Assembly: GCA_913047675.1 (NCBI GenBank)
Contig: CAJWTO010000002.1
Coordinates: forward strand, 6,833-70,832
Length of the DNA stretch: 64,000 nucleotides
Direction: 5' to 3'
DNA from: an uncultured Pseudomonadota bacterium
GTDB lineage: Bacteria; Pseudomonadota; Gammaproteobacteria; Ga0077536
Shown: positions 10,427-54,442 of the stretch, piece by piece
How the letters are laid out: every line of letters begins with the position of its first letter
Numbering within the stretch: the stretch's first letter is position 1
The notes under the pieces: model-generated
The model's database searches: none
The model's input: the letters and a program-made list of their open reading frames with translations, nothing else
Told to the model about the DNA's origin: nothing
Position numbers and translations under genes: made by a program

Positions 10427-10492
10427 TATTCATTTAACTAAATTGCTTTATCATCGATTTAAATATTTTGCATACAGAAGAGTAATGACCAC

Positions 10493-12226: not shown

Positions 12227-12267
12227 TCTTCCGGATTTCGGTATGCCTCGTTATTACGCGGATACCT

Positions 12268-29022: not shown

Positions 29023-29097
29023 TGGGGTGTCGCCAAGTGGTAAGGCACTGGGTTTTGATCCCAGCATTCCCAGGTTCGAATCCTGGCACCCCAGCCA
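29023..29097 (+). tRNA. tRNA-Gln (anticodon TTG)
   Basis: The cloverleaf has a 7-bp acceptor stem (TGGGGTG/CACCCCA). The anticodon loop TTTTGAT carries TTG. The T-arm is CCAGG-TTCGAAT-CCTGG, with discriminator G and encoded CCA. It sits between ispE and prs, as in Pseudomonas. Confidence 0.85.
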
Positions 29098-37147: not shown

Positions 37148-37564
37148 CTAGCTCGTATGAATCAGTCCCGGATGCGCTTGTTTAAGGAGAGTAGCTGCCT
37201 CACGTGCTTCACTTTCAGTAGCAAAGACCCTGTCTTTGAAAAGAATTACGGGTACGTTCGGATCGACGCAAAGTTGGCCTACTGCGTACTGTCCTTTTTT
37301 TGGAGATAAGACTATATACCAGCCGGTAACTGGCCCAGGTTTATAGCCATTAAGTTTGTACAAAAGTTTTGCAAAGTCGGCGTAGGGACCGCTAGGGTCA
37401 ATCGTTTCAAGATGCTCAGTACTGCCGAATTCGGCTGTTTCTTCCCATTGCCATGGAAGAGCTCCCTCGACATTGCTACCCATCGACTCTTGTCCTCTAA
37501 GTGCTGGGTGGAGCCACCAATAGTGATCTCGTTCCAGTTCGACCTCTTTTTCTTCTTCTCTCAA
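37148..37564 (-). CDS. hypothetical protein (138 aa), translationally coupled to the DMFase-like large subunit
   Basis: It has a 4-nt ATGA-type overlap with the upstream large-subunit gene. I recognised no family for it. Confidence 0.4.
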   Translation of the reverse strand: MREEEKEVELERDHYWWLHPALRGQESMGSNVEGALPWQWEETAEFGSTEHLETIDPSGPYADFAKLLYKLNGYKPGPVTGWYIVLSPKKGQYAVGQLCVDPNVPVILFKDRVFATESEAREAATLLKQAHPGLIHTS

Positions 37565-39969
37565 GGCAGCGCCCCTGCTTTTAAGAATCCGTTTAGAACG
37601 TTCTGCATAATTTGCGAAACGTTGTTTTTATAATCATTGTGCTGCAAAGAACCACACCATGACATCGAACCTACCGAAAATACAGCGCCATCATTGGGTG
37701 TTTTATAGTAGACGATATCGGCGCGCGTCCAAGGATTATTGTCGCCAGTACCTCCTTGAGTATAGCCTCTCGCATTGAATGTCGATTCTTCCGTAACAGA
37801 CACAAAAATATCATTATGTCCCTCAGAGTGAGCGAGAAGGTAGGCTCTATTTGGAGTCCCTAGTTCTAAATCATACCGGTCAAGTTCCAATCCTGCAGCA
37901 CCTCCGCCGACAAGACCAAAATTACCGATGACTTCGTCCGACCCGATCCCTTTCATTATCCATTTACATTCAGGTAGCTCACTATCGGGAGCTCTGCGAT
38001 AGTATGACGAGTAGGTTAATCCAAACGAGGTAAAAGTGACGCCTAATAATTTACTCATCGCTCGACCTCTCACTCGCCAGAGTCCGCCATGCTTTCCGTC
38101 GAAAGCATTGCAGTACTCTCCTGGATTAATAGTCCATGCGCGAGTTCCATTATCGCCTTTTCTAACTTCCACGATATTTGGGTTGTCAGGATGCGGCACA
38201 GTGATCCAATAAAAGCCGTTAGCAGCTAAATATAAGAATCTTCCTCCCTGTAGTTGATAGTCATGATAAGCATCCATTTGCTCTTCAGAGATATATTCCG
38301 GATGATGTCCTGTTAATACGATTGGATAACGGTTTAAAAGATCTACGCCTTCTCTCTGAACGTCTTCGTCTGTATAGATGTCGACGTCATAATCGAGTTC
38401 GTGTAGCCAATCAACTAAATGCAGATCGGCATTAAACTGCCAAATGGATGGTGATAGTACATGCAGATACTTTGGTCGCATATTAAGGATTGGGCGAAGT
38501 CTTGACGATACATTGACGCCCCAGCCATCGCGATAGGATGCATAGGTACCAAGCCCGTAACCTCTTTCTTGATTTAGAAGTAAATCACCTGGCTGCAGCA
38601 GAGGCACTTGCCCTGTTAGCAATTGCGCCACGACAGAGTTTACGCTGAGATTATCGTTGGCGTAAGCCATGTAACTATGAGTCGGCATAATGAGTGCAAT
38701 TTTTGCCGTGGTAGTTCCTTTGGGCGGTCTGACAAAAAACGGGATATAGTCTTCGTATTCAGGTGTTGATTGGCCTTTTACTCTTAAGCGAGCAGCGTAA
38801 ACACCGCTAACCATCCTATCAGGAATTTTCATAGTGAAACTAGGTCGCCAACGAGCATCGTCAACGGTCTCATCATGAAAGTGAATAGCTCCGTATTCTT
38901 GTGGCCCGTGGATAAAACTCATGAAGTGTGAGGACCAGTTGTGTCCCGGTGTACCTCGCACGGGCAAGTTAATTGCCACTCCATGTAGTCTATGAGGCCC
39001 CATATCTACGATGTGCGTAGAGGCCGCATTATCACGTATATTCGCGCTAAAATCCCATGCAGCAACTACGCTCTCTCTAAGCTCTGTTGGAATAGCTTCC
39101 ATTCTTGGGGCACCCATTATCAGCTCGATTTCGGCTCTGCTTAAGGCGCGGTTAGTTATACGTGGTCGATCTATTTTACCGTTATATTTTTGAGTATGCT
39201 CTGGAATAGCCCATGGCTCGGCGAGCTGGCCATAGTGCGCACCTGAAACAGTTCGTCCACAGTCGGGGTCCTTTGCACTAGAGGCCATCATAAATGGCGC
39301 TGAAGTTATTTTTGCCGGCCCATTTTTTACTTTAAAATTTTTCTCCGCCTCAGTATCTGACCGAGGATGCAGCATGCTCGGTCCATGACCTCCGTTAGTA
39401 GCAGTTAAGTAAGGCACCTGGCAGATAAAGCCTTTGCCGTTACTCGCGTCATAACTGACCATGACCTTGTACCAGACTTTCCGCATCATTGCCTTTTTGG
39501 TGCTAAAGGTTTCTATTTTTCCTCGACCTTTTCCAATTTTAAATTCCAGCGCCCCTGCGTCGTTAATAAATAGCCCGTATCCTACTTTTTTGGAGTCGTC
39601 CCACTTTCCTAACAGAGCTTGTTCTCCAACCGCGACACCCTCTGTATCAACAACCGGCGTTGTAGGATAGATATAGGCACACATAGTCAGACTTTCTAAA
39701 TCAAATAGCTCACTTTGAGGGCCTAAAATATAGCTACCCGCCATAAGTGGCTGATTTGCCCCTTTGTACTTTCCGTTGACGCTCGTACGAAATACTTTTT
39801 CTTTGAATCCAGGACCTTCAGGGTTGGTGTCGCCGTTGATTAGTCTAACAATATCTGATTGATACGGTTCACCAAATTCACTATGAACGTAGAAGGTGAT
39901 TTCATCTCCAGGCTCCACCGAGCATTGATCAGAATACCCCGTAATACGCAACATTGAATTTTGTTTCAT
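37561..39969 (-). CDS. N,N-dimethylformamidase large (beta) subunit family protein, paralogue 1
   Basis: It is 802 aa, preceded by a 140-aa small-subunit-like gene. It aligns along its full length with the 755-aa paralogue at 51790-54057. Shared blocks include SSRLRPILNMRPKY, FGLVGGGAAGLELDR and YGAIHFHD. The SD GGGAG lies upstream of the ATG. Confidence 0.55.
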   Translation of the reverse strand: MKQNSMLRITGYSDQCSVEPGDEITFYVHSEFGEPYQSDIVRLINGDTNPEGPGFKEKVFRTSVNGKYKGANQPLMAGSYILGPQSELFDLESLTMCAYIYPTTPVVDTEGVAVGEQALLGKWDDSKKVGYGLFINDAGALEFKIGKGRGKIETFSTKKAMMRKVWYKVMVSYDASNGKGFICQVPYLTATNGGHGPSMLHPRSDTEAEKNFKVKNGPAKITSAPFMMASSAKDPDCGRTVSGAHYGQLAEPWAIPEHTQKYNGKIDRPRITNRALSRAEIELIMGAPRMEAIPTELRESVVAAWDFSANIRDNAASTHIVDMGPHRLHGVAINLPVRGTPGHNWSSHFMSFIHGPQEYGAIHFHDETVDDARWRPSFTMKIPDRMVSGVYAARLRVKGQSTPEYEDYIPFFVRPPKGTTTAKIALIMPTHSYMAYANDNLSVNSVVAQLLTGQVPLLQPGDLLLNQERGYGLGTYASYRDGWGVNVSSRLRPILNMRPKYLHVLSPSIWQFNADLHLVDWLHELDYDVDIYTDEDVQREGVDLLNRYPIVLTGHHPEYISEEQMDAYHDYQLQGGRFLYLAANGFYWITVPHPDNPNIVEVRKGDNGTRAWTINPGEYCNAFDGKHGGLWRVRGRAMSKLLGVTFTSFGLTYSSYYRRAPDSELPECKWIMKGIGSDEVIGNFGLVGGGAAGLELDRYDLELGTPNRAYLLAHSEGHNDIFVSVTEESTFNARGYTQGGTGDNNPWTRADIVYYKTPNDGAVFSVGSMSWCGSLQHNDYKNNVSQIMQNVLNGFLKAGALP

Positions 39970-39992
39970 TTACTTGCTCCCTACTTTATTTT

Positions 39993-40415
39993 TTACATGC
40001 GTATTTCGTAATGAGCGCACAGTGATTTTAGTCTTTTACAGAAGATCGCATGCTCTGCGTCTTCTCTCGTACTATATTTTTCTTTAGTGATTTTTACCGC
40101 ATCACCTCGCGCTCCAGGCAGCACCCCGATTGAGTATTCTTTCCAAGGAATGGTTTCCACAATGGTATGTTTCCCCTTTTGTGGGAACATTCTCAACTTG
40201 TCGACTAACTTTTTTAATACGGGGCTCTGCAAAGGCGGTGGTGTTCCAGGTTGAGTCGCTCCACCTCTTGGAAATTGACGATGTTCTGCTATCAGCGCAT
40301 TACGTTTGTCTTTATCTTTCAGGTGCTCCAGGACATACATTCGCATGTCATAATCGTCTACAGCAGTCAGCGCGTAATTTTGCTGGAGTGCAGTTAATGT
40401 TTTGTTTTGAGCCAT
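39993..40415 (-). CDS. N,N-dimethylformamidase small (alpha) subunit-like protein, paralogue 1
   Basis: It is 140 aa and lies 23 nt upstream of the large subunit. It is homologous to the 108-aa ORF at 54116-54442 (FCKRLKSL vs FRKRWKSL tails). Confidence 0.45.
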   Translation of the reverse strand: MAQNKTLTALQQNYALTAVDDYDMRMYVLEHLKDKDKRNALIAEHRQFPRGGATQPGTPPPLQSPVLKKLVDKLRMFPQKGKHTIVETIPWKEYSIGVLPGARGDAVKITKEKYSTREDAEHAIFCKRLKSLCAHYEIRM

Positions 40416-40583
40416 TAGCCGTTACCTTGAATTTGTTTATCTTTGATAGGGGAAATTAAGCTTTTAATACAATAGCTACCATCACATCATTTTTTTTCAT
40501 TCATGTAAATGCGAATAGTGATTGAAATACCAACGAATGCAAATTAAAGGTAAAATAATCGAAAAATTTTATGGGAAAAGTTT

Positions 40584-41795
40584 ATGTACGCGAATATTAC
40601 AGCATCGACGGATGAATTAAAGCTTCAGTTAGAACAGTTCATGGGACAGCACGTTTATCCTAACGAGCATCGGTATCACGAAGAATTATCAGGCCTCGAA
40701 GATAGATTTTCTACTATCCCTCTTGTTGAAGAGCTAAAGACTTTAGCCAAAGAACAGGGTTTGTGGAACCTATTTATGCCAAAGGACCATGGCGGACTAA
40801 GCAATGCAGAATATGCGCCACTTGCCGAAATCATGGGTCGTGTTTATTGGAGCTCAGAAGTATTTAATTGTAATGCTCCGGATACAGGAAATATGGAGGT
40901 TTTTATAAAATATGCTACAGAACAGCAAAAAGCTGACTGGTTGCAGCCTCTCTTAGCCGGAGAAATACGTTCCTCTTTTGCTATGACCGAGCCGGATGTT
41001 GCCTCAAGCGATGCTACTAACGTACAAACCTCAATTGTGCGTGACGGTGATGAGTATGTGATTAATGGTTTAAAGTGGTTTATCACTGGTGCCATGTTCG
41101 AGAGGACCAAAATCTTTATCGTCATGGGGAAAACCGATCCAGAGAATCCTAATCGACATCTGCAACAGAGCCAAATTTTAGTTCCTAAAGATACTGATGG
41201 ACTCGTTATAACAAGACCGTTAACCACATTAGGCTACGATGATGCGCCTCAGGGGCATGCTGAGGTTAGGTTTGATAATGTGCGAGTTCCGGTCGAAAAT
41301 ATTTTACTTGGTGAGGGGCGGGGATTCGAGATCGCTCAAGGTCGACTGGGGCCTGGAAGGATCCATCATTGCATGCGACTAATTGGTGGCGCACAGAGGG
41401 CTCTAGAGCTTGCCTGTAAGCGAACAGTCTCCCGTTCGACTTTTGGTAAAACACTCTCTCAGCATCAATCAATTAGAGAAGATATCGCCAAGTCATTTTG
41501 TGAAATAGAACAGGCACGATTACTAACGATGAAAACGGCCGCTAAGATGGATGAACTAGGTGCGAAAAGCGCGATGGATTTTATAGCGGCGGCAAAAATC
41601 ACGGTACCTCTTATGGCACAAACTGTCATCGATCGATGCATGCAAATACACGGTGCCGGAGGCTTGACGGGTGATTATTGCATGGCGGAGGCTTTTAACT
41701 ACGCGAGATGGTGCCGACAGGCGGATGGTCCTGATCAAGTTCATATGATGGCGTTAGGCAAACAAATTATTAACCGCTACGCTTCCGACCACTGA
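40584..41795 (+). CDS. acyl-CoA dehydrogenase family protein
   Basis: It is ACAD-like over all three domains (403 aa). It is divergent from the DMFase-like locus 1. Confidence 0.8.
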
Positions 41796-41841
41796 TTGGA
41801 GCTTTTTTGATAAGTAGTGGTTCTAAATTTAGGTTATGCCT

Positions 41842-42354
41842 TTAGGATAACTCTGCAGAAAAACGTTTCCCGTTTTTAACGTAGCCTTCAGCGGATGCGG
41901 TGAGATTTGCTATTTGGGTCGCCGATAGTTCTCGAGCGACTTTCCCAGGCGAGCCAAGCACAAGGCTACCATCAGGTATCGTTTTCCCTTCAGTGATCAG
42001 GGCTCCTGCGCCGATCAGGCAGTTTTTTCCAATTGTAGCACCGTTCAAAATAACAGCATTTATTCCTATCAGCGAGTTATCCCCAATAGTGCATCCATGC
42101 AGCATGACTTTATGTCCTATAGTGCAATTAGACCCAATTGTTAAAGGGCAACCTGGATCGGTATGCAAAACCGATAAATCCTGCACATTGGAATTTTTTC
42201 CGATAGTGATGAGGTCATTATCGCCCCGTATAACAACCCCGAACCAGATGCTCGCATTATGTTTTAAGCGGACATTTCCAATAACAGACGCATCTGGCGC
42301 TATAAAACAGGCTCCTTCGTCTTGAACGTTGTTACTTCCCAAACTGTAAATCAT
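41842..42354 (-). CDS. gamma carbonic anhydrase family / hexapeptide-repeat protein (PaaY/CaiE-like)
   Basis: It has left-handed beta-helix hexapeptide repeats. Its N-terminus matches the gamma-CA family. Confidence 0.7.
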
Positions 42355-42471
42355 GCCCTAGCTCCGCTTAGAAATGTGAAAACGAGACGATACCTTTATT
42401 ACATTAATAAAGACAAGTCCAAAATGTAAATTGTTAGATAGTTTGTTTCATCTCTAGTAATGTGTGTAGCC

Positions 42472-43641
42472 ATGAGTAATAGGGGATTAACCTTTTTTGA
42501 TACGGCGATCGGTTGGTGTGGCTTAGCCTGGGACGGCAACAATATTTTGGGTTTCCAGTTACCTGAGGCGACCAAAGAGCTCACTGAAAAAAAAATGCGA
42601 GGTCAGTACCCAAATCTCGTTGGGGATGTAGTCCCAAGTAGGTTAATAGCCAATCTTTGTCGTGATGTGCTGTCGCACGTCGAGGGTAGGGCTCAGGATT
42701 TTTCCGCGATAAGTATAGACATATCGACGTTAACTCCTTTTAGTAAAAGAGTGTATGAATTTACCAGAGCGATCCCAGCAGGGAAAACGATTTCTTACGG
42801 AGAGTTGGCCAAGAGGATTGGTAGTCCTAATTCGGCGCGAGCAGTTGGTCGCGCACTGGGAGCTAACCCTATACCTTTGCTTGTTCCTTGCCATCGTGTG
42901 ATAGCAGCTAATGGGGCTCTGACCGGATTTAGTGCTACTGGTGGAGTGGAGCTGAAAGCACATCTTTTAGAGATTGAGCGTATGAGTTCGGAACACAGCG
43001 GAGGGTTTGTATATTGTCCTCGGCGTGCCGCCGGCTATTTGAAAACTCGAGACGAATATTTAGGACATTTTATTGATCAAATCGGTATGCCAAGTTTAAC
43101 AATACGCAAAACCTCAACAATTTTTGCCGCACTTACACGTACTATAGTAGGTCAGCAGTTGAGTACTAAGGCAGCAGCGACAATTTTCGAACGTTTTTGT
43201 CGCATATTACCTCGGGGTCTGAGCGGTCTGACGCCCCAAAATTATTTATCGATAAACGAGACTGAGCTTCGCAGCGTGGGTTTGTCTCGAAATAAAGTAG
43301 CAGCAATAGGGGATCTAGCGGAGAAAACTTTATCGAAGAGAGTACCCGGCTTGGCAGCATTAAGAAGGATGGACGATGCACAGGTAGTGGAGGTTTTGTC
43401 GAATGTTAAGGGCATAGGGAAGTGGACCGCAGAAATGGTTTTAATGTTTCGTCTCGGTCGTCCTGACGTTTTATCTGTTGATGATCTCGGCTTGAGGTTG
43501 GGCCACGCGATCTTGGTGAGTAGTGGTCGAGAGACTGATAGAAAGACTTTACGCGATTATGGGGAACGGTGGCGGCCGTATCGCAGTATCGCTAGCTGGT
43601 ATCTATGGCGAATTCTGGATTTGTCACGTAGTAAAAAATAA
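42472..43641 (+). CDS. fusion protein: methylated-DNA-protein-cysteine methyltransferase (Ogt) + DNA-3-methyladenine glycosylase II-like (HhH-GPD)
   Basis: The N-terminal half carries the MGMT active site PCHRVI. The C-terminal half has the HhH-GPD motif GIGKWTAEMVLMFRLGRPDVLSVDD. An alternative start lies at 42460. Confidence 0.65.
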   Translation: MSNRGLTFFDTAIGWCGLAWDGNNILGFQLPEATKELTEKKMRGQYPNLVGDVVPSRLIANLCRDVLSHVEGRAQDFSAISIDISTLTPFSKRVYEFTRAIPAGKTISYGELAKRIGSPNSARAVGRALGANPIPLLVPCHRVIAANGALTGFSATGGVELKAHLLEIERMSSEHSGGFVYCPRRAAGYLKTRDEYLGHFIDQIGMPSLTIRKTSTIFAALTRTIVGQQLSTKAAATIFERFCRILPRGLSGLTPQNYLSINETELRSVGLSRNKVAAIGDLAEKTLSKRVPGLAALRRMDDAQVVEVLSNVKGIGKWTAEMVLMFRLGRPDVLSVDDLGLRLGHAILVSSGRETDRKTLRDYGERWRPYRSIASWYLWRILDLSRSKK

Positions 43642-43673
43642 TTGCGGTGTTTTTCTGAGGAGCTATTACTATT

Positions 43674-45080
43674 TTATAAGTCTGGTCGCATTGTGTGCCA
43701 TTCGGTCAGATCTTCATAGCCCGCGGCCGCTCTTATGATGGATGATTCATCACCTAATTTCCCAATAAATTGCATAGCAGTAGGCATTCCAGAAGCGTCA
43801 AAGCCATTTGGTACGGTAATGCTGGGATGACCTGAAAAGTTTGTGGGTGCGGCAAATCGTACCAATGGTGCTATATCTTCTATCGCAGCTACTTGCTGCG
43901 GCGGATAATCCGATTGAGGACCTGCTAATCCAGGCATGGCAGGACAAACAAGTACGTCTACTGTCTCTAAGAGTTCATTGATTAACGCTCGTGTAGCTTG
44001 TCTTTGTTTACATGCTTTCGCATACTCTTTCGCACTTACTTGTAGGCCATGTTCTAGAAGTGAGCGGAAAACTGGACCGTAATCATCGGCTTTTTCTGGG
44101 AACAAACCTTCATGCCCACACAAAGCATCAACTGAGCATATTGTCATCCAATGATCGGCGGCTTCGACGATTTCTGGCCGATTAATTTCTATAATTTGAG
44201 AGCCTTCATGTCTCATTAGCTCAACTGCAGTGGCTGTGGCTTGAAACATTTGAGGGTCGCAGTCGGTAGATGAATATTGCTGATCAAACCCTACGGTGAT
44301 GCCCCTTAAGCCTTGATTCGCGGCGGATAAATAGTCGCTACTTTTATCGGAACGGGTCGATCCATCACGTGAGTCGCGCCCCTCAAGTATCTCTAGAACC
44401 ATCGCTGCGTCACGTACGCTACGAGCCATAGGGCCAATATGATCCAGTGTGTCAGATAATGGGAAAACGCCATATCTGCTTATTTTTCCAAAAGTAGGCT
44501 TGATACCTACGACCCCGCAGGCTGCTGAAGGGAACCGAATTGATCCACCGGTATCAGTTCCGAGGCTGGCAAAGCAAAGGGAGGCCCCAGTCGCGCTTCC
44601 TGAACCACTGGAAGAAACTCCTGACCAATGTTCAATGTTCCACGGATTATTCGGAGGCCTATAGTCAGGATGGTAACCATAGAGGGCAAATTCGGTTAGA
44701 TTGAGTTTCCCTAATATCACGGCGCCCGCGCTTTTAAGTTTTTCGACCACCGTGGCGTCGTGTTCTGGTTTGAACTTTTTTCGTATTGTCGAAGCGCAAG
44801 TTGTTTCTATTCCAGTAACATTGACAAGGTCTTTGAGTGCGATAGGAACTCCATGAAGTGGTCCTCGATACAATCCTTTTTTGATTTCTGATTCGGCCTG
44901 AGTTGCTCCTGTAAGAGCGAGTTCGTCTGATATTGAGATGTAACTATTAAGTTTTTTATCTATCTTATACACTCTGTCCAGCATTGCCTCTGTTAATGCA
45001 ACGGGTGATATTTCTTTGCTTTGGATGAGCGGAGCTATAGTTTCGATAGTTTGAGTTAGTAAGTCGGATTCGATAGTCAT
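43674..45080 (-). CDS. amidase (amidase-signature family)
   Basis: It has the AS-family motif GTDTGGSIRFPSAACGVVGIKPTFG. Confidence 0.8.
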   Translation of the reverse strand: MTIESDLLTQTIETIAPLIQSKEISPVALTEAMLDRVYKIDKKLNSYISISDELALTGATQAESEIKKGLYRGPLHGVPIALKDLVNVTGIETTCASTIRKKFKPEHDATVVEKLKSAGAVILGKLNLTEFALYGYHPDYRPPNNPWNIEHWSGVSSSGSGSATGASLCFASLGTDTGGSIRFPSAACGVVGIKPTFGKISRYGVFPLSDTLDHIGPMARSVRDAAMVLEILEGRDSRDGSTRSDKSSDYLSAANQGLRGITVGFDQQYSSTDCDPQMFQATATAVELMRHEGSQIIEINRPEIVEAADHWMTICSVDALCGHEGLFPEKADDYGPVFRSLLEHGLQVSAKEYAKACKQRQATRALINELLETVDVLVCPAMPGLAGPQSDYPPQQVAAIEDIAPLVRFAAPTNFSGHPSITVPNGFDASGMPTAMQFIGKLGDESSIIRAAAGYEDLTEWHTMRPDL

Positions 45081-45109
45081 TTCGCTTTCCCTAGATTCTT
45101 GATAACTGC

Positions 45110-45373
45110 TTAATCGGGTCTTTTAAGTTTAAAAAAATACCAGTAAATATTACTTTTGTCATAAATAGTCTCAGCATAATATTTTTCTTCAGCCAGGTAT
45201 TGGTGCGTTTCGACAATATTTTTTTCAATAAGTTTATCCAGCGCCGCTTTAACTTCAGCGGGAGAAGTTTCGATCCCCATTGCTGTAGATTGTTTTACCG
45301 CATAAGTATTTATGTGATCAAAAGTACTATAGGGTTTTTGCAGAGCGTCTTTTATCCACAGTGTGACCAGCAT
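45110..45373 (-). CDS. hypothetical protein (87 aa)
   Basis: It is a small ORF 4 nt downstream of the SelW-like gene stop. I recognised no family for it. Confidence 0.35.
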   Translation of the reverse strand: MLVTLWIKDALQKPYSTFDHINTYAVKQSTAMGIETSPAEVKAALDKLIEKNIVETHQYLAEEKYYAETIYDKSNIYWYFFKLKRPD

Positions 45374-45377
45374 CGTA

Positions 45378-45599
45378 TTAGACTTCTTTGGCCATAGCTC
45401 GCACCTCAGTCTCTGTCGGAAACCTTCCGCTTAGCTTTTTAGAAAAGATCATTTTATCTGGTTTACTTATCTCAAAAACACCACCGGCGCCTTCCAGCAG
45501 GATAACTTCAATTTTTTCGTATTCCAGTAGCAGCGATCTCACACGGAGTGCTTCGGGCTTATAGTTTCACTGCACGCAGTATTTGATACTAATGTTCAT
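45378..45599 (-). CDS. SelW-like (Rdx family) selenoprotein with in-frame UGA (Sec) in a CxxU motif
   Basis: It is not in the ORF track. Translation with TGA read as U gives MNISIKYCVQUNYKPEALRVRSLLLEYEKIEVILLEGAGGVFEISKPDKMIFSKKLSGRFPTETEVRAMAKEV. This aligns with SelW: YCGAUGYK vs YCVQUNYK, and GFFEV...KLIHSKKKGDG vs GVFEI...KMIFSKKLSG. The ATG overlaps the cinA stop as ATGA. Confidence 0.7.
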
Positions 45600-46825: not shown

Positions 46826-46946
46826 ACTTTATTAACCTTAAATAATTAAAATTTTTACTACAGATTCAATGTTATATTTAGAATGAGAATATTAGATTTA
46901 TAGCTAGATTAATATAGCAGTAACCATTTTTTCGGAGTGATAGCAA

Positions 46947-47906
46947 TTGCGTTTTAGTATAGTTGGATGCGGGGCATTGGGAACCATACTCGGTGCTCAC
47001 TTATTAGGGGCAGGCCACGAAGTCAATGTCCGAGTGAGAGGGATGCGATTAAAACAAATAGAGACTAATGGTCTCTGCGTAAACGGCCTGAGGCAATTTT
47101 CGGGGCTTGGTTGTGGAAGCTTGACCATTAATATGCCGGTTAAAGAAGATATCTTGGTTTATGCTGTTAAGACTTACCACTTTGAGCAAGCATTTTCTGA
47201 TGTGGGCAGCTCCAACCCTTTGGCAGTATTTTCCCTAGCTAATGGCGTTGAGAAGACCCGTCTTTTAAAAAATCGTTACTCGGAGTCAAGTGTCCTAGGG
47301 TGTATGGCAAATTTCAGTGGGGAGCTGGGGAGTGATGGGGTCGCTAATTTTACCCGCAATGTTGCGGTCTATATTGGAGGTTCATCGGTACATGTGAGAA
47401 GCATAGTTGAAACTATTAATAGCGCCGGGATAAATACAATTTCTAGTGATAAAATAGAAACCGAAGAATGGTCTAAATTTGTTGGTTGGGTCGCTTTATT
47501 AGTCACCTCTGTGATTGCACGGGCAGATACTGGAGCTACATTAGCTAATCCTTATTTGGCTCAAATTGCGGCGACTATAATTTATGAATCTAGCTTAATA
47601 GCTTTGAAGCAGGGAGTTACGCTTATTGACCGTGCGCCATTTCCTGTAGCAACTATCTCTTCGGTATCACTAGCGGATGCAACGCGTGCGGTGATAAAAA
47701 TAGGGGAAGATTTTATTCGCGAAGCTCCAGGCCATCGCATGTCAGCGGTCCAAGATTTAGCTTTTGGTAGAGAGTTAGAAGTGGAAGAGACGTTAGGATT
47801 TTTGTGCAAAGAAGCTGTATCGTTCGGATTAGATTGTCCCTGTCTGCAGATGTCGTACAATATAGTCTCGGGTGTTAATCATATTCAAAAATCGTTGAAG
47901 AATTAG
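46947..47906 (+). CDS. 2-dehydropantoate 2-reductase family (ApbA/PanE-like) oxidoreductase
   Basis: It has the N-terminal Rossmann motif IVGCGALGTILGAHL and a KPR-like C-domain. Confidence 0.55.
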   Translation: MRFSIVGCGALGTILGAHLLGAGHEVNVRVRGMRLKQIETNGLCVNGLRQFSGLGCGSLTINMPVKEDILVYAVKTYHFEQAFSDVGSSNPLAVFSLANGVEKTRLLKNRYSESSVLGCMANFSGELGSDGVANFTRNVAVYIGGSSVHVRSIVETINSAGINTISSDKIETEEWSKFVGWVALLVTSVIARADTGATLANPYLAQIAATIIYESSLIALKQGVTLIDRAPFPVATISSVSLADATRAVIKIGEDFIREAPGHRMSAVQDLAFGRELEVEETLGFLCKEAVSFGLDCPCLQMSYNIVSGVNHIQKSLKN

Positions 47907-47926
47907 CAGAGGAGTTATTTTACCTC

Positions 47927-48805
47927 ATGATTGAGTCGGCCCCAGGACCCACGTCACATCGTTTTTTATCGCAAAGACTCAGGCTGCATTATGTAGACTG
48001 GGGCAATTCTGATTTAGAGCCTTTATTAATGATTCATGGTGGTCGAGATCACTGCCGTAATTGGGATTGGATCGCGCACTCTTTGAGGGAAAAATGGCAT
48101 ATCATTGCGCCAGATTTACGTGGGCATGGTGATAGTGATTGGTCTCCTGATGGGCATTACGATATGGCAAGTTATGTCTACGACCTAGCCCAGCTTATTC
48201 ATCAGAAGGGCTTGGCGCCGGTCACAATTCTAGCGCATTCACTTGGTGGAAATATCGCGCTTCGGTATGCTGGACTATACCCTGAAACGGTTAAATCTAT
48301 CGTTGCAATTGAAGGGCTTGGGTGGCCCCCGAAAGTCCTAGCAGAGCGAGCAAAAAAAACCTTTGATGAAAGGTTGAGAGATTGGATAGAAGAGAAAAGA
48401 AGTTTCGCCGGGAGGCTTCCTAGACGCTATCAGTCAATTGAAGAAGCACTAGGGCGAATGCAGGGAGAAAATAAGCATTTATCTCCAGAACAGGCTTATC
48501 ACTTAACAGTGCATGGGACGGTGCAAAATGAGGATGGCACTTATTCTTGGAAATTTGATAATTATGTCAGAAATTGGCCAGCCTATGACATGCCGACTGA
48601 CGAGCTGCAGGCGCTTTGGGCCAAGATCAAATGTCCTACTCTCTTGGTGTATGGTGAAGAAAGTTGGGCGTCTAGCCCGGAGGATGACGGAAGAATTAAA
48701 TTTTTTTCTAATGCCAAGGTCCAAGGATTTGCAGATGCTGGTCACTGGGTTCATCATGACCAACTACAACTATTTTTAGATACATTGAATAAGTTTTGGG
48801 ATTAG
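47927..48805 (+). CDS. alpha/beta hydrolase
   Basis: It has the nucleophile elbow AHSLGG and an HGGxDH-like oxyanion region. Confidence 0.7.
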   Translation: MIESAPGPTSHRFLSQRLRLHYVDWGNSDLEPLLMIHGGRDHCRNWDWIAHSLREKWHIIAPDLRGHGDSDWSPDGHYDMASYVYDLAQLIHQKGLAPVTILAHSLGGNIALRYAGLYPETVKSIVAIEGLGWPPKVLAERAKKTFDERLRDWIEEKRSFAGRLPRRYQSIEEALGRMQGENKHLSPEQAYHLTVHGTVQNEDGTYSWKFDNYVRNWPAYDMPTDELQALWAKIKCPTLLVYGEESWASSPEDDGRIKFFSNAKVQGFADAGHWVHHDQLQLFLDTLNKFWD

Positions 48806-48830
48806 CCTTACAGCATAGCTTTTGAGTTGT

Positions 48831-49667
48831 TTAAAATAAATTTTCCAAGCATCCTGATACCTCTTTTAGTTTGGCGAGATGCTGGTTTGGCGATAAGTCG
48901 CCGCCCAGCGTTCGGATGCAAAGATGAGATAGGCCTATCTCATTCCAATTTTTGACGCGATCTTTCCATTCAGCTTCTCGAGGTCCGACCACAGCTACTC
49001 CAGCCTCTTTTCCTATCTCGAGAGGATTCCGGCCTGCAGCAGATGCGCAGCAAATGATTTTTTCATTTAACTTAGGAAACTCTTCTGGAGTGCATAAGAC
49101 AAACCAACCGTTAGATTGAGTGGCAATCCGGTTTATTACTGCGCCATTTGGAGACGCCTTAGCCCCAATCCACATAGGTATTGGTCTTTGCACCGGCAAG
49201 GGGTTGAGACCAGTGTCTGAGATGGAGTGCCACTCGCCATTAAAGGTAACTTGATCTTGTGTCCAAAGTGCTTTTAATAAGCGCATCTGCTCGTCACAAC
49301 GCTTTCCCCGATTTTTGAAGTCTTCGCCTAAGAAAGTATACTCTTCTTCGCTGCCTCCAACTCCTATTCCTAGTCTGAGCCTTCCCCCGGAAAGGATATC
49401 TATTTCTGCTGCTTGCTTAGCGACTAAGACAGTCTGTCGTGCCGGCAATATAATAACGGAAGGAACTAGCTCGATTGATTCGGTAATGCCGGCAAGATAA
49501 GCCATTAGGGTAAGTGGTTCGTGAAGGTGTTTGTTTCCAGGCCTCAAGATCTGGTCTGGAATGCGGAGGTGATTGTAGCCAAGCTGCTCTGCCATCTGAC
49601 AAAAATCTTTGATAGCTATGATATCATTTTTGAGCTCCCTTACTGGGAGGGATACACCTATTTTCAT
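48831..49667 (-). CDS. LLM-class flavin-dependent oxidoreductase
   Basis: It has a luciferase-like monooxygenase TIM-barrel pattern. It overlaps the formamidase gene by 4 nt. Confidence 0.6.
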   Translation of the reverse strand: MKIGVSLPVRELKNDIIAIKDFCQMAEQLGYNHLRIPDQILRPGNKHLHEPLTLMAYLAGITESIELVPSVIILPARQTVLVAKQAAEIDILSGGRLRLGIGVGGSEEEYTFLGEDFKNRGKRCDEQMRLLKALWTQDQVTFNGEWHSISDTGLNPLPVQRPIPMWIGAKASPNGAVINRIATQSNGWFVLCTPEEFPKLNEKIICCASAAGRNPLEIGKEAGVAVVGPREAEWKDRVKNWNEIGLSHLCIRTLGGDLSPNQHLAKLKEVSGCLENLF

Positions 49668-50674
49668 CTGTTTACCTTAGTAGGAGAATTAATGGCATCG
49701 AACAATCTACTTTTGGGATACTCTGCGCCTACAACGTGTTGAATGGTCTGGAGACGCACCATTTGGTAAGTTCGGATCCTAAATGCAGGGTCACAGGACA
49801 TGCGAATATACAGGTCTTTTGGCGGCACCTCATATTCATCTGCCAGCCATTGCATTAAGTTATCTGTCGCGTCGTAGACAGCATGTTCCATTGGTAAATT
49901 AATACCTATCGCTACTATACTTTCAGGTTTTTCTATTCTGACACAGGGTAGGCGCTTGTTAGAAATTACTCTACAGGATAGTTGGACTGTGGATCTAGTC
50001 TCATCCGCAATTCCGGTAAATTCTGTATCGCCCTGCCCGCCGTGCACATCGCCTATATAGAGGAGACCACCTTCATTATAAGAGTTCAGATAAATAGTAT
50101 GACCGGCACAAACATCTCTACAGTCAATATTGCCACCGAACGGGCCTTGCCCAAGTACTGAGGTAAACACCTCGCGTTCGGGTGCGGTGGCTAATGTGCC
50201 CACAAAGGGTTCAAGAGGCCAGCTCAGATTTTCTGAGTATTTGGCTGTCCCATCTCTGGTAAACCCACTTGGGCCTTTGAGGTGTTCTATCACCTGAACA
50301 TGACCTTCGGTACAGTCATGATAGCGGAGCGAGTCGCCTAGAGGGCCAATCTTCGGTAAGATGCCGGAGAATCCGTAACGCCACGGATCCACCCAGTCAA
50401 TATCTACTGCGACAACATCGCCTGAGTGACACCCCTTAATAAAAATGGGACCGACAACCGGATTGAATAGGCCGGGGGTTGCATCTGCCAACTCAGAAAA
50501 GTGCGTACCACTAAACCCTTGGATAGTTGGATCATCGGAATCATCTGATATCATGCCAGAAAGAGCATCGTCGGTTTCGATTTGAAAAGTTTCGCCCGAT
50601 TCCACATGGAGGCACGGCTCATCGCGATTATCGAAAGCATATTTTTGGACCTGTCCTCTTTTTAAAATCTTCAT
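49664..50674 (-). CDS. acetamidase/formamidase family protein (FmdA/AmdA)
   Basis: It is FmdA_AmdA-like over its length. The start was chosen at the ATG preceded by the SD AAGGGGA rather than the upstream TTG at 50728. Confidence 0.6.
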   Translation of the reverse strand: MKILKRGQVQKYAFDNRDEPCLHVESGETFQIETDDALSGMISDDSDDPTIQGFSGTHFSELADATPGLFNPVVGPIFIKGCHSGDVVAVDIDWVDPWRYGFSGILPKIGPLGDSLRYHDCTEGHVQVIEHLKGPSGFTRDGTAKYSENLSWPLEPFVGTLATAPEREVFTSVLGQGPFGGNIDCRDVCAGHTIYLNSYNEGGLLYIGDVHGGQGDTEFTGIADETRSTVQLSCRVISNKRLPCVRIEKPESIVAIGINLPMEHAVYDATDNLMQWLADEYEVPPKDLYIRMSCDPAFRIRTYQMVRLQTIQHVVGAEYPKSRLFDAINSPTKVNR

Positions 50675-50785
50675 GAGCTCATTCCCCTTATTAATATCTG
50701 TCGAAATTGCGACTAATTTGTAAACCAACTTTAATATTCAATGAATTTTAATACAATAAGTGTCGACTGAAGCTAAGACAAGCGG

Positions 50786-51310
50786 GTGCAGATTGATATG
50801 TGGGAATACGATGGGTCCTCGAGGCCGCCTTTTGCTGACGAGCCCAATATTCAACAGGAGTCTGTTTGGGATTATCCAAGACCTCCGCGGATTGAATGCT
50901 CGGTTAAGCTGGTTCGTGTAGCGTCGAGTGCTGGATTGATTGCGGAAACGTTATCTGCTCTGAGAGTTATCGAGACAGCTTCGCCCCCCGTTTACTATCT
51001 ACCGCACTCATCTATTGACCGGACTTTTTTACGGAAAATCGAACACTCTTCATGGTGTGAATGGAAAGGATCAGCTAGCTATTTAGTATACACAGGCGGT
51101 GAGATAGAGGTGATAGCGGGTTGGTCTTACGAAGACCCATCGGACGGTTTTGAATTGCTAAAAGGTTATGTTTCTTTTTATCCGGGAGTTTTAAATTGCT
51201 TTTTGGATAAGGAGCTAGTTCAGGCTCAGCCTGGCAAATTTTATGGTGGTTGGGTTACGAAGGATATTTTAGGTCCGATGAAAGGTGGACCGGGCACCAG
51301 TCATTGGTAA
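50786..51310 (+). CDS. DUF427 domain protein
   Basis: It has the YPRPP and CxWKGxAxY pattern typical of DUF427. It is divergent from the formamidase gene. Confidence 0.5.
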   Translation: MQIDMWEYDGSSRPPFADEPNIQQESVWDYPRPPRIECSVKLVRVASSAGLIAETLSALRVIETASPPVYYLPHSSIDRTFLRKIEHSSWCEWKGSASYLVYTGGEIEVIAGWSYEDPSDGFELLKGYVSFYPGVLNCFLDKELVQAQPGKFYGGWVTKDILGPMKGGPGTSHW

Positions 51311-51367
51311 ATATATTTTATTTAGACTATAGCGTATGCTTTTGGACAATAGTGTGTTCAGGAAGGA

Positions 51368-51398
51368 TAAAAAAAACCGGACTATGAAGTCCGGTTTT
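51368..51398. terminator. bidirectional rho-independent terminator hairpin
   Basis: The sequence is A8-CCGGACT-ATGA-AGTCCGG-T5. It follows the DUF427 gene. Confidence 0.7.
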
Positions 51399-51590
51399 TA
51401 GGGAGACCTGAATAAATTGAAGGGGAGGTCAAGTTATCCAAGTACTTCTAAAAGCGTTGAAGGGGAGGTTCAAGCATCTCTTAGATGTATGTACTTTAAC
51501 TTTCTAGATGTTGCGCCGCAACATGCTAAATTGAAAATGAGTATTTCTATTATGGAAAGGCGTCTGCTCTAAAATGGAACAGCCTGCACC

Positions 51591-51624
51591 AAAAAAAAGC
51601 CGGAACATAGAGATCCGGCTTTTT
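51591..51624. terminator. bidirectional rho-independent terminator hairpin
   Basis: The sequence is A8-GCCGGA-(9 nt loop)-TCCGGC-T5. On the minus strand it would terminate the DMFase-like locus 2 transcript. Confidence 0.65.
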
Positions 51625-51789
51625 GGGAGGTCCCAGAATTAGCTTCGAGGGGAGATCGAATTACTAACAGGGAAACGTATTATATAAGTAATATGATGCG
51701 TCGCAACATACAAAATAGAACAAGTGTCTTTCCAAATTGTACTAGCTGAGTCTCCGAAATAGAAAAACTAATTTTACTGTGAAGTAATT

Positions 51790-54057
51790 TTAGTCGGTTA
51801 TGGGGCCATCTGTTACAAATCGATCCAATACATTTTTGGTTATTTTAGAGACATTATTTTTGTAACTATTATGCGAAAGCGAGCCCGGCCATGCAATGGA
51901 GCTAGTTGAGAATACGCCTCCCCCGTTGTTAGTCTCGTAAAATACTAGATCAGCTCTTATCAGTGGGTTTTCCTGTCCACCAAGCCCTGGATAGTTAATT
52001 AGTAGCTCTTCACAAACAAGTAGATAAAGATCGGTATGGTCTTCGGACGAAGCGAGCACGTAAGCATTTGGATGTGTGCCTAAGCTCACATCAGCTCTAT
52101 CTAATTCAAGCCCGGCTGCACCGCCTCCGACGAGTCCAAAGTCTCCAATTTTTTCGTCAGGTCGTACTCCTGACATTATCCATTTGACAGGTTTTTTAAA
52201 GCTATCCGGTTTTCGAGTATAAAATGAAGAAATATCAAAACCCTGTGCGGTAAACCCCGAACCGACGATTTTTTGTGGCGCGCGGCCATTTCTTCGCCAG
52301 AGGCCGCCATATTCCCCAGTAAAAGAATGATAATACTCTCCAGTTTGTGCCTCCCAACCTCGAATGCCTCCTTCAGCTCTTCGTACCTCAATGATTCCGT
52401 CCGCCTCCTCGTGAAAGGCAATACGCCAATACCAACCATTTGCGCCAAGATACATCAGACGACCACCTCTATCCTGGTAGGTAGCCATTGCGTCCCACAT
52501 CTCTTTTGAATGATATTCAGGATGTGATGAGGATAGCACAACTTTGTATCGCTCCAGACAGTCCACCCCTTCATAGTGCAGTTCTTCATCTGTGATCACG
52601 TCATAGTCATATTTCATTGCTTCAAGCCAATTTATAATGTGTGTATCCGCATTAAATTGCCAGAGGGTGGACCCTTTCCCGCCAAGCCAGCTTTTATACT
52701 TTGGACGCATATTTAGTATAGGTCGCAAACGGGACGAATAGCACACTCCGGATCCATCAGTATGTACGTCGTAACAGCTAGGACCATACTCTCGATGTTC
52801 GTTCCTGTAGAGATCTTGGTGTTGATGTTCGACCAACCGTCCGGCTAGTAATTGAGCAATAGGTGCATCTGTCCCCATATGCTCATTGGCATAGGCCATA
52901 TAGCTGGCTGTGGGCAGTAGAAAACAGATTTTGGCTGTAGCCTTCCCTTTAGGAGGTAGAACGGCAAATGGTACATAGTCTTCTTCTTCTAGGTTGTTAC
53001 CGCATCGTAGCCTGGCAGCATATAACCCACTTTTCAGACTTTTTGGGATTTTAAGTGTAACGTCTATCTCCCATCCTGCGTCATGAACATCGTCGTCATG
53101 AAAGTGTATCGCACCATATTGGTTTGGCGCATGGCTCCAGTTCATTTCGTCGCCATTCCAATTCCATCCAGTCATTCCCCGAACCGGCATGTTGACGAGC
53201 TTTCCGTTGATGCGATTACCAGATACATCAGAAACATTCATAGATTTAATATTTTTAGAAAAGTCCCACGCGGCTAAAACATCTATTGCCATTAAGCTTT
53301 GATTTTGACGGTATTTTAGTTGCTCTATTTCCATGGGGTTTAGAGCTCTAGAAGCAATAGCGGGACTATCTATTTTGCCGTTGAAGTGATTCTGACAAAC
53401 AGTTCTATTTTTATCGAACTTTAGGAAGTTGGCGCCTATAGTTGCGACTCGTGCACAGTTTTTCATCCCGCGATTACGGACTGTATATTTCTTCTTAGCC
53501 GAGTCATTAATTTTTGCGTGATTATGCAATGCTTCTTGCGTTAAGGACACGCTTTTTGTTTTTGCATCGTAAGTAGCGCTTACGAAGTACCAGTTCCTGG
53601 GTAAGAAACTTTTTCCTGTAGAGAATTCTTCCAGTTTACCTTTCCCAAATCCGAGCGTTAGCGTTAGACCGCAGTTTTGCGACCCAAGCGAAAGGTAGGC
53701 GCCGTTTGAATCCCGTTGGGACCAATTCCCTATAATAGTCTGCTTATTGTTTTCTGGTATTGTTGGCCAAATAAACGCCTGTAATGTGAAGCTTTCTAGA
53801 GAATTAAAGTGTTCACTTTCTTCCAATTGTATAAAGGAACCTGCATGGATAACCTGCCGTCTCCCCGGGTAGGTCCCATTTGCTTTTGTTTTGATCGGAT
53901 GTTCTTTATATCCTGGCCCGTCGGGATTTAGATCGCCGCATATCAGTTTGACGAAGTCGGCCTTAAAAGAGTTAGCCCGGCAGTTAACCATGAAGTTAAT
54001 TGATTCTTCAGGTGCGACACTAGTTCGGTCTGCGTAAGCAGTTATTTTCATCGTCAT
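51790..54057 (-). CDS. N,N-dimethylformamidase large (beta) subunit family protein, paralogue 2
   Basis: It is 755 aa and colinear with the 802-aa paralogue. It is preceded by a small-subunit-like gene. Confidence 0.55.
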   Translation of the reverse strand: MTMKITAYADRTSVAPEESINFMVNCRANSFKADFVKLICGDLNPDGPGYKEHPIKTKANGTYPGRRQVIHAGSFIQLEESEHFNSLESFTLQAFIWPTIPENNKQTIIGNWSQRDSNGAYLSLGSQNCGLTLTLGFGKGKLEEFSTGKSFLPRNWYFVSATYDAKTKSVSLTQEALHNHAKINDSAKKKYTVRNRGMKNCARVATIGANFLKFDKNRTVCQNHFNGKIDSPAIASRALNPMEIEQLKYRQNQSLMAIDVLAAWDFSKNIKSMNVSDVSGNRINGKLVNMPVRGMTGWNWNGDEMNWSHAPNQYGAIHFHDDDVHDAGWEIDVTLKIPKSLKSGLYAARLRCGNNLEEEDYVPFAVLPPKGKATAKICFLLPTASYMAYANEHMGTDAPIAQLLAGRLVEHQHQDLYRNEHREYGPSCYDVHTDGSGVCYSSRLRPILNMRPKYKSWLGGKGSTLWQFNADTHIINWLEAMKYDYDVITDEELHYEGVDCLERYKVVLSSSHPEYHSKEMWDAMATYQDRGGRLMYLGANGWYWRIAFHEEADGIIEVRRAEGGIRGWEAQTGEYYHSFTGEYGGLWRRNGRAPQKIVGSGFTAQGFDISSFYTRKPDSFKKPVKWIMSGVRPDEKIGDFGLVGGGAAGLELDRADVSLGTHPNAYVLASSEDHTDLYLLVCEELLINYPGLGGQENPLIRADLVFYETNNGGGVFSTSSIAWPGSLSHNSYKNNVSKITKNVLDRFVTDGPITD

Positions 54058-54115
54058 TTTAAAAGGCCCCCATTATTTTTTACTGAATAAACCCCAACGG
54101 TCTCAATTAAGTGGT

Positions 54116-54442
54116 TTAAGGTTTGAGTGTCTCTCCCGTTAAAGACTTCCATCTTTTTCGGAAAATATACCACTCGGCATCGGATTGACTGCTGAAGGTT
54201 TTTGGTAATTTCACTACCTGCTTCCCAGCCACTCCGGATGTCTTAGCAAGTTGCCAAAGTCGATTGGGTTTAATGACTAGCAGACAGAATTTATCTTTCA
54301 TGGGGATACCACGAAATTTATTGAGAAGTCGTTGCAGCTCCGGACTGTGGTGACCGATTGGATTCCGTTTAAACTCGGCTATAAGCTCCCTGTCATTAGA
54401 GGACGATATAAATTTTTCTCCAGGATTTTTTCCCATTTCCAT
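54116..54442 (-). CDS. N,N-dimethylformamidase small (alpha) subunit-like protein, paralogue 2
   Basis: It is 108 aa and lies 58 nt upstream of large subunit 2. It is homologous to the C-terminal 70 aa of ORF 39993-40415. Confidence 0.45.
   Translation of the reverse strand: MEMGKNPGEKFISSSNDRELIAEFKRNPIGHHSPELQRLLNKFRGIPMKDKFCLLVIKPNRLWQLAKTSGVAGKQVVKLPKTFSSQSDAEWYIFRKRWKSLTGETLKP

Follow-up and report, generated by a model that had tools for sequence, protein, structure and literature searches.

Two dimethylformamidase-family modules in an open-ocean gammaproteobacterial contig, one with a conserved third, alpha-like gene

We analysed a 64,000-nucleotide stretch of DNA (hereafter referred to as the window) from an uncultured Pseudomonadota bacterium (Gammaproteobacteria; Ga0077536), comprising positions 6,833 to 70,832 of contig CAJWTO010000002.1 in assembly GCA_913047675.1. 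The window carries two modules related to N,N-dimethylformamidase (DMFase), each encoding a small (alpha-type) and a large (beta-type) subunit. A first-pass annotation, made from the letters and their open reading frames (ORFs), had described these as two small-plus-large pairs about 12 kb apart. All four ORFs lie on the minus strand where they had been placed, with 11.8 kb between the two large genes, and the presence of two DMFase-family small-plus-large modules is confirmed. Module 1 contains in addition a third gene, referred to here as X or alpha'. The five genes are as follows.

39993–40415, minus strand: small1, 140 aa, DMFase alpha-type small subunit of module 1
37561–39969, minus strand: large1, 802 aa, DMFase beta-type catalytic subunit of module 1
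37148–37564, minus strand: X (alpha'), 138 aa, third gene of module 1, a probable divergent paralogue of the small subunit
54116–54442, minus strand: small2, 108 aa, DMFase alpha-type subunit of module 2, short at its N-terminus
51790–54057, minus strand: large2, 755 aa, DMFase beta-type catalytic subunit of module 2

Relationship between the two modules

The large subunits align end to end with 43% identity (604 bits, E 0.0), far beyond chance, and their proposed colinearity holds, as the blocks SSRLRPILNMRPKY, FGLVGGGAAGLELDR, YGAIHFHD and YAARLR are identical in the large1–large2 alignment. The small subunits are 32% identical across about 95 residues (E 2e-11); the C-terminal 70 residues that they had been said to share correspond to a likeness across their C-terminal two thirds, but the two proteins are not identical there. 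A tblastn search of all neighbourhood proteins against the window found no third large-subunit copy.

The large subunits retain the DMFase iron site

In both large1 and large2, Pfam identifies a LamG-like domain followed by a DMFA2_C domain (PF20254), the latter with E 1.5e-86 (292 bits) in large1 and E 4.6e-98 (330 bits) in large2, against a cut-off of 27. Furthermore, both proteins match the large subunit of Paracoccus DMFase (PDB 6LVB, chain A) over its full length, with E 1e-166 for large1 (residues 5–756 aligned) and E 3.5e-183 for large2 (residues 5–758). The DMFA2_C scores above the gathering score, together with this full-length colinearity, place both in the DMFase large-subunit family (KEGG K03418), and the comparison with a characterised DMFase that had been recommended bears out the original assignment. 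NCBIfam holds no equivalog model for either protein.

In Paracoccus DMFase, the ligands of Fe(III) are Y399, Y440 and E521, and H519 and N547 are essential (PMC7686228). We aligned 26 large1-type and 23 large2-type sequences, counting in the window proteins. The residues Y399, Y440, H519, E521 and N547 correspond to Y436, Y476, H556, E558 and N584 of large1 and to Y389, Y429, H512, E514 and N540 of large2, and the expected triad of two tyrosines and one glutamate is thus kept in both. All five residues are invariant across the two groups, except that three of the 26 large1-type sequences have aspartate in place of N547. The same residues are equally conserved in an N-acetyl-(R)-beta-phenylalanine acylase (PDB 8HUY), and they thus denote the chemistry of the family, not a specificity for N,N-dimethylformamide (DMF). 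The pocket-gating residue F693 of DMFase is paired by MAFFT with an invariant phenylalanine (F731) in the large1-type sequences and with aliphatic residues in the large2-type sequences. HMMER shifts the alignment of this loop by one column relative to MAFFT, and in view of this conflict we abandoned the F693 gate as a predictor of specificity.

Both small subunits belong to the DMFase alpha family

The small1 protein matches 6LVB chain B (E 2.2e-6, residues 40–134) and scores 215 bits on the Small1-family hidden Markov model (HMM), and the DMF_alpha domain (PF26354) is precomputed on a 99%-identical orthologue. As a single sequence, small2 matches 6LVB chain B weakly (E 0.045), but a profile built from 29 orthologues matches it with E 1.6e-12 over positions 31–129, and orthologues of small2 carry PF26354. 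We thus regard small2 as a genuine alpha subunit, shorter by roughly 30 residues at its N-terminus. Both proteins are thus homologous to the solved DMFase small subunit; no model in our local Pfam and NCBIfam sets matches small1, small2 or X. The DMFA2_C domains, the matches to chains A and B of 6LVB and the conserved iron ligands agree with the alpha/beta pairing that the first-pass annotation had recognized.

Module 1 has a conserved third gene

The description of module 1 as a small-plus-large pair holds in that the pair is present, but the unit has three genes, the 138-aa ORF X having been overlooked. X sets the start coordinate of the reported region (37148), and the first-pass annotation is silent on it. 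Its TTG start codon overlaps the TGA stop codon of large1 by 4 nt (TTGA), and such an overlap is found in 19 of 52 large–X pairs. X has no sequence match in Pfam, NCBIfam or the PDB, and a Foldseek search of its model against the PDB gave no match at E ≤ 0.001. The family is small, with 34 clusters at 50% identity among 1.84 billion representatives, and its members are labelled 'hypothetical protein' wherever any source names them.

Profile comparison connects X to the small subunits. The X family aligns by hhalign to the two small-subunit families with probabilities of 96.1% (E 3.7e-9) and 97.7% (E 1.6e-12) over 58–60 columns, and the matched region is the C-terminal helix–strand–strand–strand–helix core of the small subunit. 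Moreover, PF26354 is precomputed on a 122-aa X homologue from one of the compared loci (L004; loci of other genomes are given L numbers). The N-terminal part of X has a WW-HP-RG motif of its own. We conclude that X is probably a divergent paralogue of the small subunit, derived from its C-terminal half.

The distribution of X follows that of the large1-type module. By tblastn, 43 of 87 loci have X beside the large gene, among them every locus whose large subunit is at least 66% identical to large1. In an HMM census of 157 loci, window included, a Small1-type gene occurs together with X in 71 and alone in 21, a Small2-type gene occurs alone in 62, and X occurs alone in two truncated loci; the window is the sole sequence in which Small1-type, X and Small2-type genes are found together. 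Counting the window, 72 of the 93 Small1-type loci have X directly next to their large gene, and a small1-type alpha accompanies X everywhere but in the two truncated loci. Conversely, X is absent from all 62 Small2-only loci and never stands beside a Small2-type module in the census. The gene order is alpha-beta-X, or beta-X-alpha in some lineages. These patterns lead us to conclude that X is a hallmark of the large1/small1-type module.

A subclade of Small1-type loci in which X is missing even by HMM search (L031–L046, L048, L054 and L066) comes mostly from Binatia and Alphaproteobacteria and encodes large subunits about 62% identical to large1. The Binatia loci that we examined are flanked by luciferase-like monooxygenase (LLM) family oxidoreductases, an alpha/beta hydrolase and an enoyl-CoA hydratase, and in most of them by an amidase-signature (AS) amidase.

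Module 2 has no third gene, as only ORFs of at most 51 aa are found within 51310–51790. This 480-bp non-coding gap separates the convergent DUF427 and large2 genes. In a comparison with the two-gene, alpha2beta2 organization of DMFase, module 2 conforms and module 1 departs from it on account of X. In the searchable literature (open-access papers and preprints) we found no mention of an X-type third gene in a DMFase-family architecture, an absence that is not proof of novelty. What our analysis adds is a conserved alpha-like third gene, and with it a three-gene variant of the DMFase architecture, which abundant marine lineages share.

The shared ancestry of X and the small subunit admits two roles for X. 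It could be an accessory factor, such as an assembly or iron-insertion chaperone, a regulator or an inhibitor, instead of a stoichiometric subunit; the retention of the alpha-beta-beta-beta-alpha core only, the separate N-terminal motif, the invariable presence of a true alpha gene (small1) and the existence of a Small1-type subclade that manages without X would all fit such a role. We nevertheless consider it unlikely, as a 4-nt overlap that couples its translation to that of the catalytic subunit is what one usually sees between partners of a complex, and genomes with two modules (L004, L013, L021, L025 and L059) encode separate alpha, beta and X genes for each module, so that X appears to co-evolve with its own beta subunit and not to be a shared factor. 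A second small subunit that joins the complex is the role that we favour.

The modules belong to two separate subfamilies

Sequence identities among the large subunits are as follows.

large1 versus DMFase: 38%
large2 versus DMFase: 40%
within the large1-type group: median 68%
within the large2-type group: median 62%
large1-type versus large2-type groups: median 47%
either group versus DMFase: median 42–43%
either group versus N-acetyl-beta-phenylalanine acylase: median 36–39%

This identity matrix rules out a recent tandem duplication. The two loci had been read as a duplication, and as a local or recent event this reading fails, since the large1-type and large2-type proteins form separate subfamilies (68% and 62% within, 47% between). 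The two modules are members of two old subfamilies that happen to share a genome. The further idea that they have two substrate specificities is plausible. large1 and large2 each have more than 100 database clusters at 55–99% identity, in Gammaproteobacteria, Alphaproteobacteria, Binatia, Deltaproteobacteria and others, and both are closer to these uncharacterised groups of their own than to the characterised DMFase. A protein 100% identical to large1 is encoded in an uncultured marine gammaproteobacterial metagenome-assembled genome (MAG; CALJHG010000003.1).

Homologues of the large-subunit gene (K03418) occur in 4.5% of complete prokaryotic genomes; 22.7% of the carriers have multiple copies, and copies in one genome are often nearer to those of other genomes than to each other (10.1101/2021.03.18.435917). 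With so many multi-copy carriers, the presence of two modules is in itself ordinary. Two modules also lie side by side or divergently in L004 (6192–12876), L013, L017, L019, L021, L025, L030 and L059, where one large subunit is about 70–79% and the other about 57–59% identical to large1. The pair in L004 directly follows prs-rplY-pth-ychF, which is the chromosomal position of module 1 in the window.

Proposed function of the two modules

We propose, with a probability of roughly 0.6, that module 1 encodes an alpha-beta-alpha' iron amidohydrolase and module 2 a classic alpha-beta enzyme, and that the two hydrolyse different natural N-substituted amides, not DMF. The proposal builds on the homology of the subunits, the preservation of the catalytic residues, the arrangement of the genes and its recurrence in other genomes, the cognate alpha gene beside each beta gene and the alpha-like nature of X, from which we infer the physical participation of X, the amide-hydrolysis reaction and the class of substrate.

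In Paracoccus DMFase, the catalyst of amide hydrolysis is Fe(III), the large subunit shows no activity on its own, and the alpha subunit stabilizes domains II and III and helps to form the substrate entrance (PMC7686228). By analogy, the Fe(III) site of each beta subunit, with two tyrosine phenolates, one glutamate carboxylate and a nearby histidine and asparagine, would polarize the amide carbonyl, and both window enzymes would split the amide C–N bond to yield a carboxylate and an amine or ammonia. The alpha subunit would stabilize the complex and line the substrate entrance. X, translationally coupled to beta, would most likely be a further small subunit of the assembled enzyme, in which it could alter the shape of the entrance or of the oligomer and hence the specificity. 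Each module very probably has a natural N-substituted amide of its own as substrate, which the cell would import as a source of nitrogen or carbon. In the lineage of the window, a major facilitator superfamily (MFS) importer, two short-chain dehydrogenase/reductase (SDR) enzymes and an M20D aminoacylase-type hydrolase encoded downstream of module 1 may import the substrate and process the products.

DMF itself had been judged an improbable substrate, and our results agree. It is very unlikely that both modules encode genuine N,N-dimethylformamidases (EC 3.5.1.56) that convert DMF or N-methylformamide to dimethylamine and formate, even though both large subunits resemble the solved DMFase strongly over their full length with an intact iron site, JGI and NCBI label many homologues 'N,N-dimethylformamidase', and the gating phenylalanine may be kept in the large1-type proteins. 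The identity to DMFase is just 38–40%, each module has its own group of large-subunit orthologues, and close relatives of DMFase act on other substrates: the acetamiprid amidase AceAB does not hydrolyse DMF (PMC11573777), and the beta-phenylalanine acylase has the same site. DMFase accepts only DMF, N-methylformamide, N-ethylformamide and formamide, and DMF is described as a synthetic solvent not known in nature (10.1101/2019.12.17.879908), yet genes of this type are frequent in the genomes of open-ocean SAR11, Pseudothioglobus and similar organisms (PMC10308929). In addition, no dimethylamine or methylamine catabolic genes are present among the annotated ORFs of the 64-kb window. This absence adds to the case against DMF. 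A genomic link to dimethylamine or methylamine oxidation is typical of the known DMF degraders, though not strictly defining.

Several observations weigh against our proposal of a three-subunit and a two-subunit amidase with distinct natural substrates. The catalytic residues are family-wide and carry no substrate information. The F693 gate may be retained in the large1-type proteins, in which case activity of module 1 on small formamides would be possible. The X-less subclade, 21 Small1-type loci by HMM, indicates that X is dispensable for this type of beta subunit, and gene adjacency is no proof that X enters the enzyme complex. Finally, the accessory genes change with lineage, and the context points to no consistent substrate.

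Comparison with known systems

The closest characterised system is the DMFase of Paracoccus sp. DMF and Methylobacterium (DmfA1/DmfA2; PDB 6LVB, 6LVC and 6LVV). The window modules share with it the small-plus-large gene pair, a large subunit of three domains to which large1 and large2 are colinear throughout, the two-tyrosine, one-glutamate Fe(III) site with His519 and Asn547 kept, and the small-subunit fold. They differ from it in the low identity of large1 and large2, in the truncated alpha N-terminal helix region of small2, in the extra alpha-like gene of module 1, in the aliphatic residue at the F693 gate of the large2-type proteins and in their host, which lives in the open ocean and has no dimethylamine pathway close to the modules.

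The N-acetyl-(R)-beta-phenylalanine acylase (PDB 8HUY, 8I59 and 8I5A) has a large subunit of the same fold family, which matches large1 and large2 with E 1e-121 and 2e-147, more weakly than 6LVB chain A. With the same Tyr/Tyr/His/Glu/Asn residues, it shows that the family hydrolyses N-acyl amines beyond formamides. Unlike the window modules, each of which has a small subunit, its deposited entries list one protein and no small-subunit chain, and its identity to the window proteins is 34–41%; neither module is thus of the acylase type, which would combine a close relationship with the lack of a small subunit. AceAB from Pigmentiphaga sp. D-2, a two-subunit alpha/beta relative of DMFase, sets a precedent for divergent specificity, but has a xenobiotic substrate and a two-gene architecture; this comparison was made by description, not by sequence.

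A further counterpart is the 'N,N-dimethylformamidase' of the flotillin-associated rhodopsin (FArhodopsin, FAR) cluster of SAR11, HIMB59 and Pseudothioglobus, which is 57–58% identical to large1. Genes for X and for a Small1-type alpha stand with it, the three being arranged as beta-alpha'-alpha or alpha-beta-alpha'. Unlike that cluster, module 1 of the window has no adjoining rhodopsin, flotillin or sodium/solute symporter family (SSF) genes. The small subunits and the third gene go unmentioned in the passages of the FAR-cluster paper covered here (PMC10308929).

Members of the DMFase family occur in about 4.5% of complete prokaryotic genomes, among proteins of the open Pacific and in a conserved SAR11/Pseudothioglobus cluster, yet to our knowledge the substrates assigned to the family are limited to a solvent of synthetic origin, an insecticide and an N-acetyl-beta-amino acid, and not one of these is known as a marine substrate. 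The recognition of distinct marine subfamilies, one of which may need three genes for expression, should aid the search for natural substrates; as the Paracoccus large subunit is inactive without its small subunit (PMC7686228), the omission of X could give false negatives in heterologous expression. Tentatively, and with less confidence than we place in the proposal above, the large1-type modules, including the FAR 'dimethylformamidase' of SAR11 and Pseudothioglobus, might represent an unrecognised heterotrimeric (alpha-beta-alpha') class of iron amidohydrolases, in which the alpha-like subunit would set the specificity for an abundant natural marine N-substituted amide. If this were true, the class would constitute a significant and so far unassigned route of dissolved organic nitrogen remineralization.

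Neighbouring genes in the window

The following features lie around the two modules.

35873–37120, minus strand: MFS transporter (PF07690), 27 bp downstream of X
35145–35876, minus strand: SDR oxidoreductase, 243 aa (adh_short), overlapping the MFS gene by 4 bp
34341–35114, minus strand: SDR oxidoreductase, 257 aa (adh_short_C2, E 4e-65)
33118–34290, minus strand: M20D amidohydrolase, 390 aa (Peptidase_M20 and M20_dimer; TIGR01891 'amidohydrolase', 359 bits, above the cut-off)
32692–33084, minus strand: SnoaL-like small protein (PF12680, E 3e-6), last gene of the co-oriented run
43674–45080, minus strand: AS enzyme (PF01425, E 2e-109), scoring under all NCBIfam equivalog cut-offs; part of a separate transcription unit
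49664–50728, minus strand: FmdA/AmdA-like protein (PF03069, 75 bits; NCBIfam FmdA, 40 bits against a cut-off of 500)
48831–49667, minus strand: LLM oxidoreductase, overlapping the FmdA/AmdA-like gene by 4 bp
51372–51399, minus strand: terminator-like hairpin with a 12-bp stem and a T run, at the end of module 2

Module 1 heads a co-oriented run of small1, large1, X, MFS, SDR, SDR, M20D and SnoaL genes, from 40415 to 32692, with gaps of −4 to 50 bp. The MFS gene is probably in one operon with module 1, and the whole MFS-SDR-SDR-M20D-SnoaL series is probably co-transcribed with it. The M20D protein scores below the NCBIfam cut-offs for DoeB2 and CpsA.

The neighbours that the first-pass annotation had named are present, namely the AS enzyme, the M20 protein, the two SDRs, the MFS transporter, an acyl-CoA dehydrogenase, a fused CoA-transferase, an enoyl-CoA hydratase and the LLM oxidoreductase. 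The gene that it had called an FmdA/AmdA formamidase encodes a member of that family, but a distant one, far below the formamidase equivalog cut-off. The LLM protein scores above the cut-off of the 'F420-dependent' subfamily TIGR03619, an affiliation not expected for a gammaproteobacterium. Between the amidase and CinA genes lies a gap of 515 bp (45081–45595), where relatives have a called 87-aa gene with no Pfam match (L001, 4600–4863). Upstream of the CoA-transferase gene and module 2, a 139-aa protein (57660–58079) has a weak PPOX-class (TIGR03618-like) match, and a DUF1329/LolA-like protein is encoded at 56159–57532; both genes are kept only in close relatives.

These genes had been taken together as one amide-catabolism neighbourhood, but they form no single conserved unit. 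The AS amidase and the FmdA-like/LLM units are interleaved on both strands with genes for the acyl-CoA dehydrogenase, a hexapeptide protein, Ada/AlkA, CinA, PanE, an alpha/beta hydrolase and DUF427, and the 'amide island' reading is only weakly supported. In its strongest form, the whole of 32.7–60.5 kb would be one pathway for an N-acyl or N-formyl amide, comprising both DMFase-like enzymes, the AS amidase, the FmdA-like protein, the M20 enzyme, the SDRs, the acyl-CoA dehydrogenase, the CoA-transferase and the enoyl-CoA hydratase. The gene set does stay together in relatives whose large subunits are 76–100% identical (L001, L009–L012, L069, L088–L091 and L102), and an AS amidase related to that of the window also adjoins large2-type modules in L114 and L118. 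On the other hand, shared descent alone would lead near relatives to keep the same gene order, and beyond the close lineage neither module retains any of these genes; the region spans both strands and at least eight transcription units, with interleaved CinA, PanE, Ada/AlkA and gamma-carbonic anhydrase-like genes. We therefore consider a single pathway improbable.

Conservation of context in other genomes

The MFS, SDR, SDR, M20 and SnoaL genes accompany module 1 only where the large subunit is at least 76% identical, which is the case in 10–11 of 87 loci, including nine near-identical relatives; in L013, whose large subunit is 79% identical, the context already differs from that of the window. 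The neighbours of module 2, the FmdA/AmdA-like and LLM pair among them, likewise persist only to about 76% identity (L088–L091 and L102). The contexts of both types beyond these relatives vary, and all transporter and glutamine synthetase (GS) matches in other genomes are below equivalog cut-offs.

Large1-type modules adjoin Liv/Urt-like ABC importers, an ammonium transporter, flotillin and a two-component system in L005, L022, L026 and L029. L022 is the cultured Roseobacter weihaiensis H9 (NZ_JACNMO010000003.1), in which a small-large-X unit with 69% identity lies by flotillin, a Liv/Urt-like ABC importer, an ammonium transporter and a two-component system. In L017, L019, L030, L058 and L062, they occur with two GS-like genes, a PhyH dioxygenase and a class I amidotransferase, and in L072–L087 (SAR11, Pseudothioglobus and Arenicellales) within a cluster of rhodopsin, flotillin, alpha/beta-hydrolase, metallo-beta-lactamase and Na+/solute symporter genes. 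The last is the published FArhodopsin cluster, in which the name 'N,N-dimethylformamidase' is given by annotation only in the passages of PMC10308929 considered here. FAR clusters with the order beta-X-alpha are L072, L074, L077, L079–L081, L084 and L085 (at about 10000–13200 in each), and a Na+/solute symporter of about 650 aa precedes the large gene in most of the FAR loci listed, though not in L077 or L084. Large2-type modules are found with Pot-like or Liv-like ABC importers (some together with an AS amidase), with IclR and a class IV aminotransferase, or with an MTTB-family methyltransferase.

With neighbours varying by lineage, substrate inference from gene context failed. The common theme of these contexts appears to be the uptake of small nitrogenous solutes, and no single substrate emerges. 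The presence of modules by Liv/Urt-type and Pot-type ABC importers, ammonium transporters, GS-like and glutamine amidotransferase genes and the Na+/solute symporter is suggestive of a nitrogen-scavenging setting. 'DmfA' proteins of Alphaproteobacteria and Gammaproteobacteria have been found in Pacific metaproteomes, beside hydrolases that the authors group as ammonia-producing (PMC9477243).

Other features of the window

The G+C content is flat at 0.41–0.46, with no compositional signal of an island in the window. A search for sigma-54 promoters (TGGCAC-N5-TTGCW) gave 28 matches against 28.8 expected, none of them in the two upstream regions, and thus no sign of NtrC control; scans for sigma-70 promoters and terminators were at chance level, save for the hairpin after large2. 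An Rfam scan of the window returned only one tRNA, with no riboswitch or small RNA, and did not match the hairpin at 51372–51399. The annotated part of the upstream region (8.7–32.7 kb) contains the housekeeping genes hemCD, uvrD, hemA-prfA-prmC, lolB-ispE and prs-rplY-pth-ychF and a tRNA gene, which lies at 29023–29094, between ispE and prs.

Among the other genomes, MAG records labelled Klebsiella pneumoniae, Klebsiella sp. or Enterobacteriaceae (L015, L043, L050, L053, L055 and L067) carry loci of environmental type, and their labels look unreliable. L067, which is on the same contig as L004, is visibly G+C-rich.

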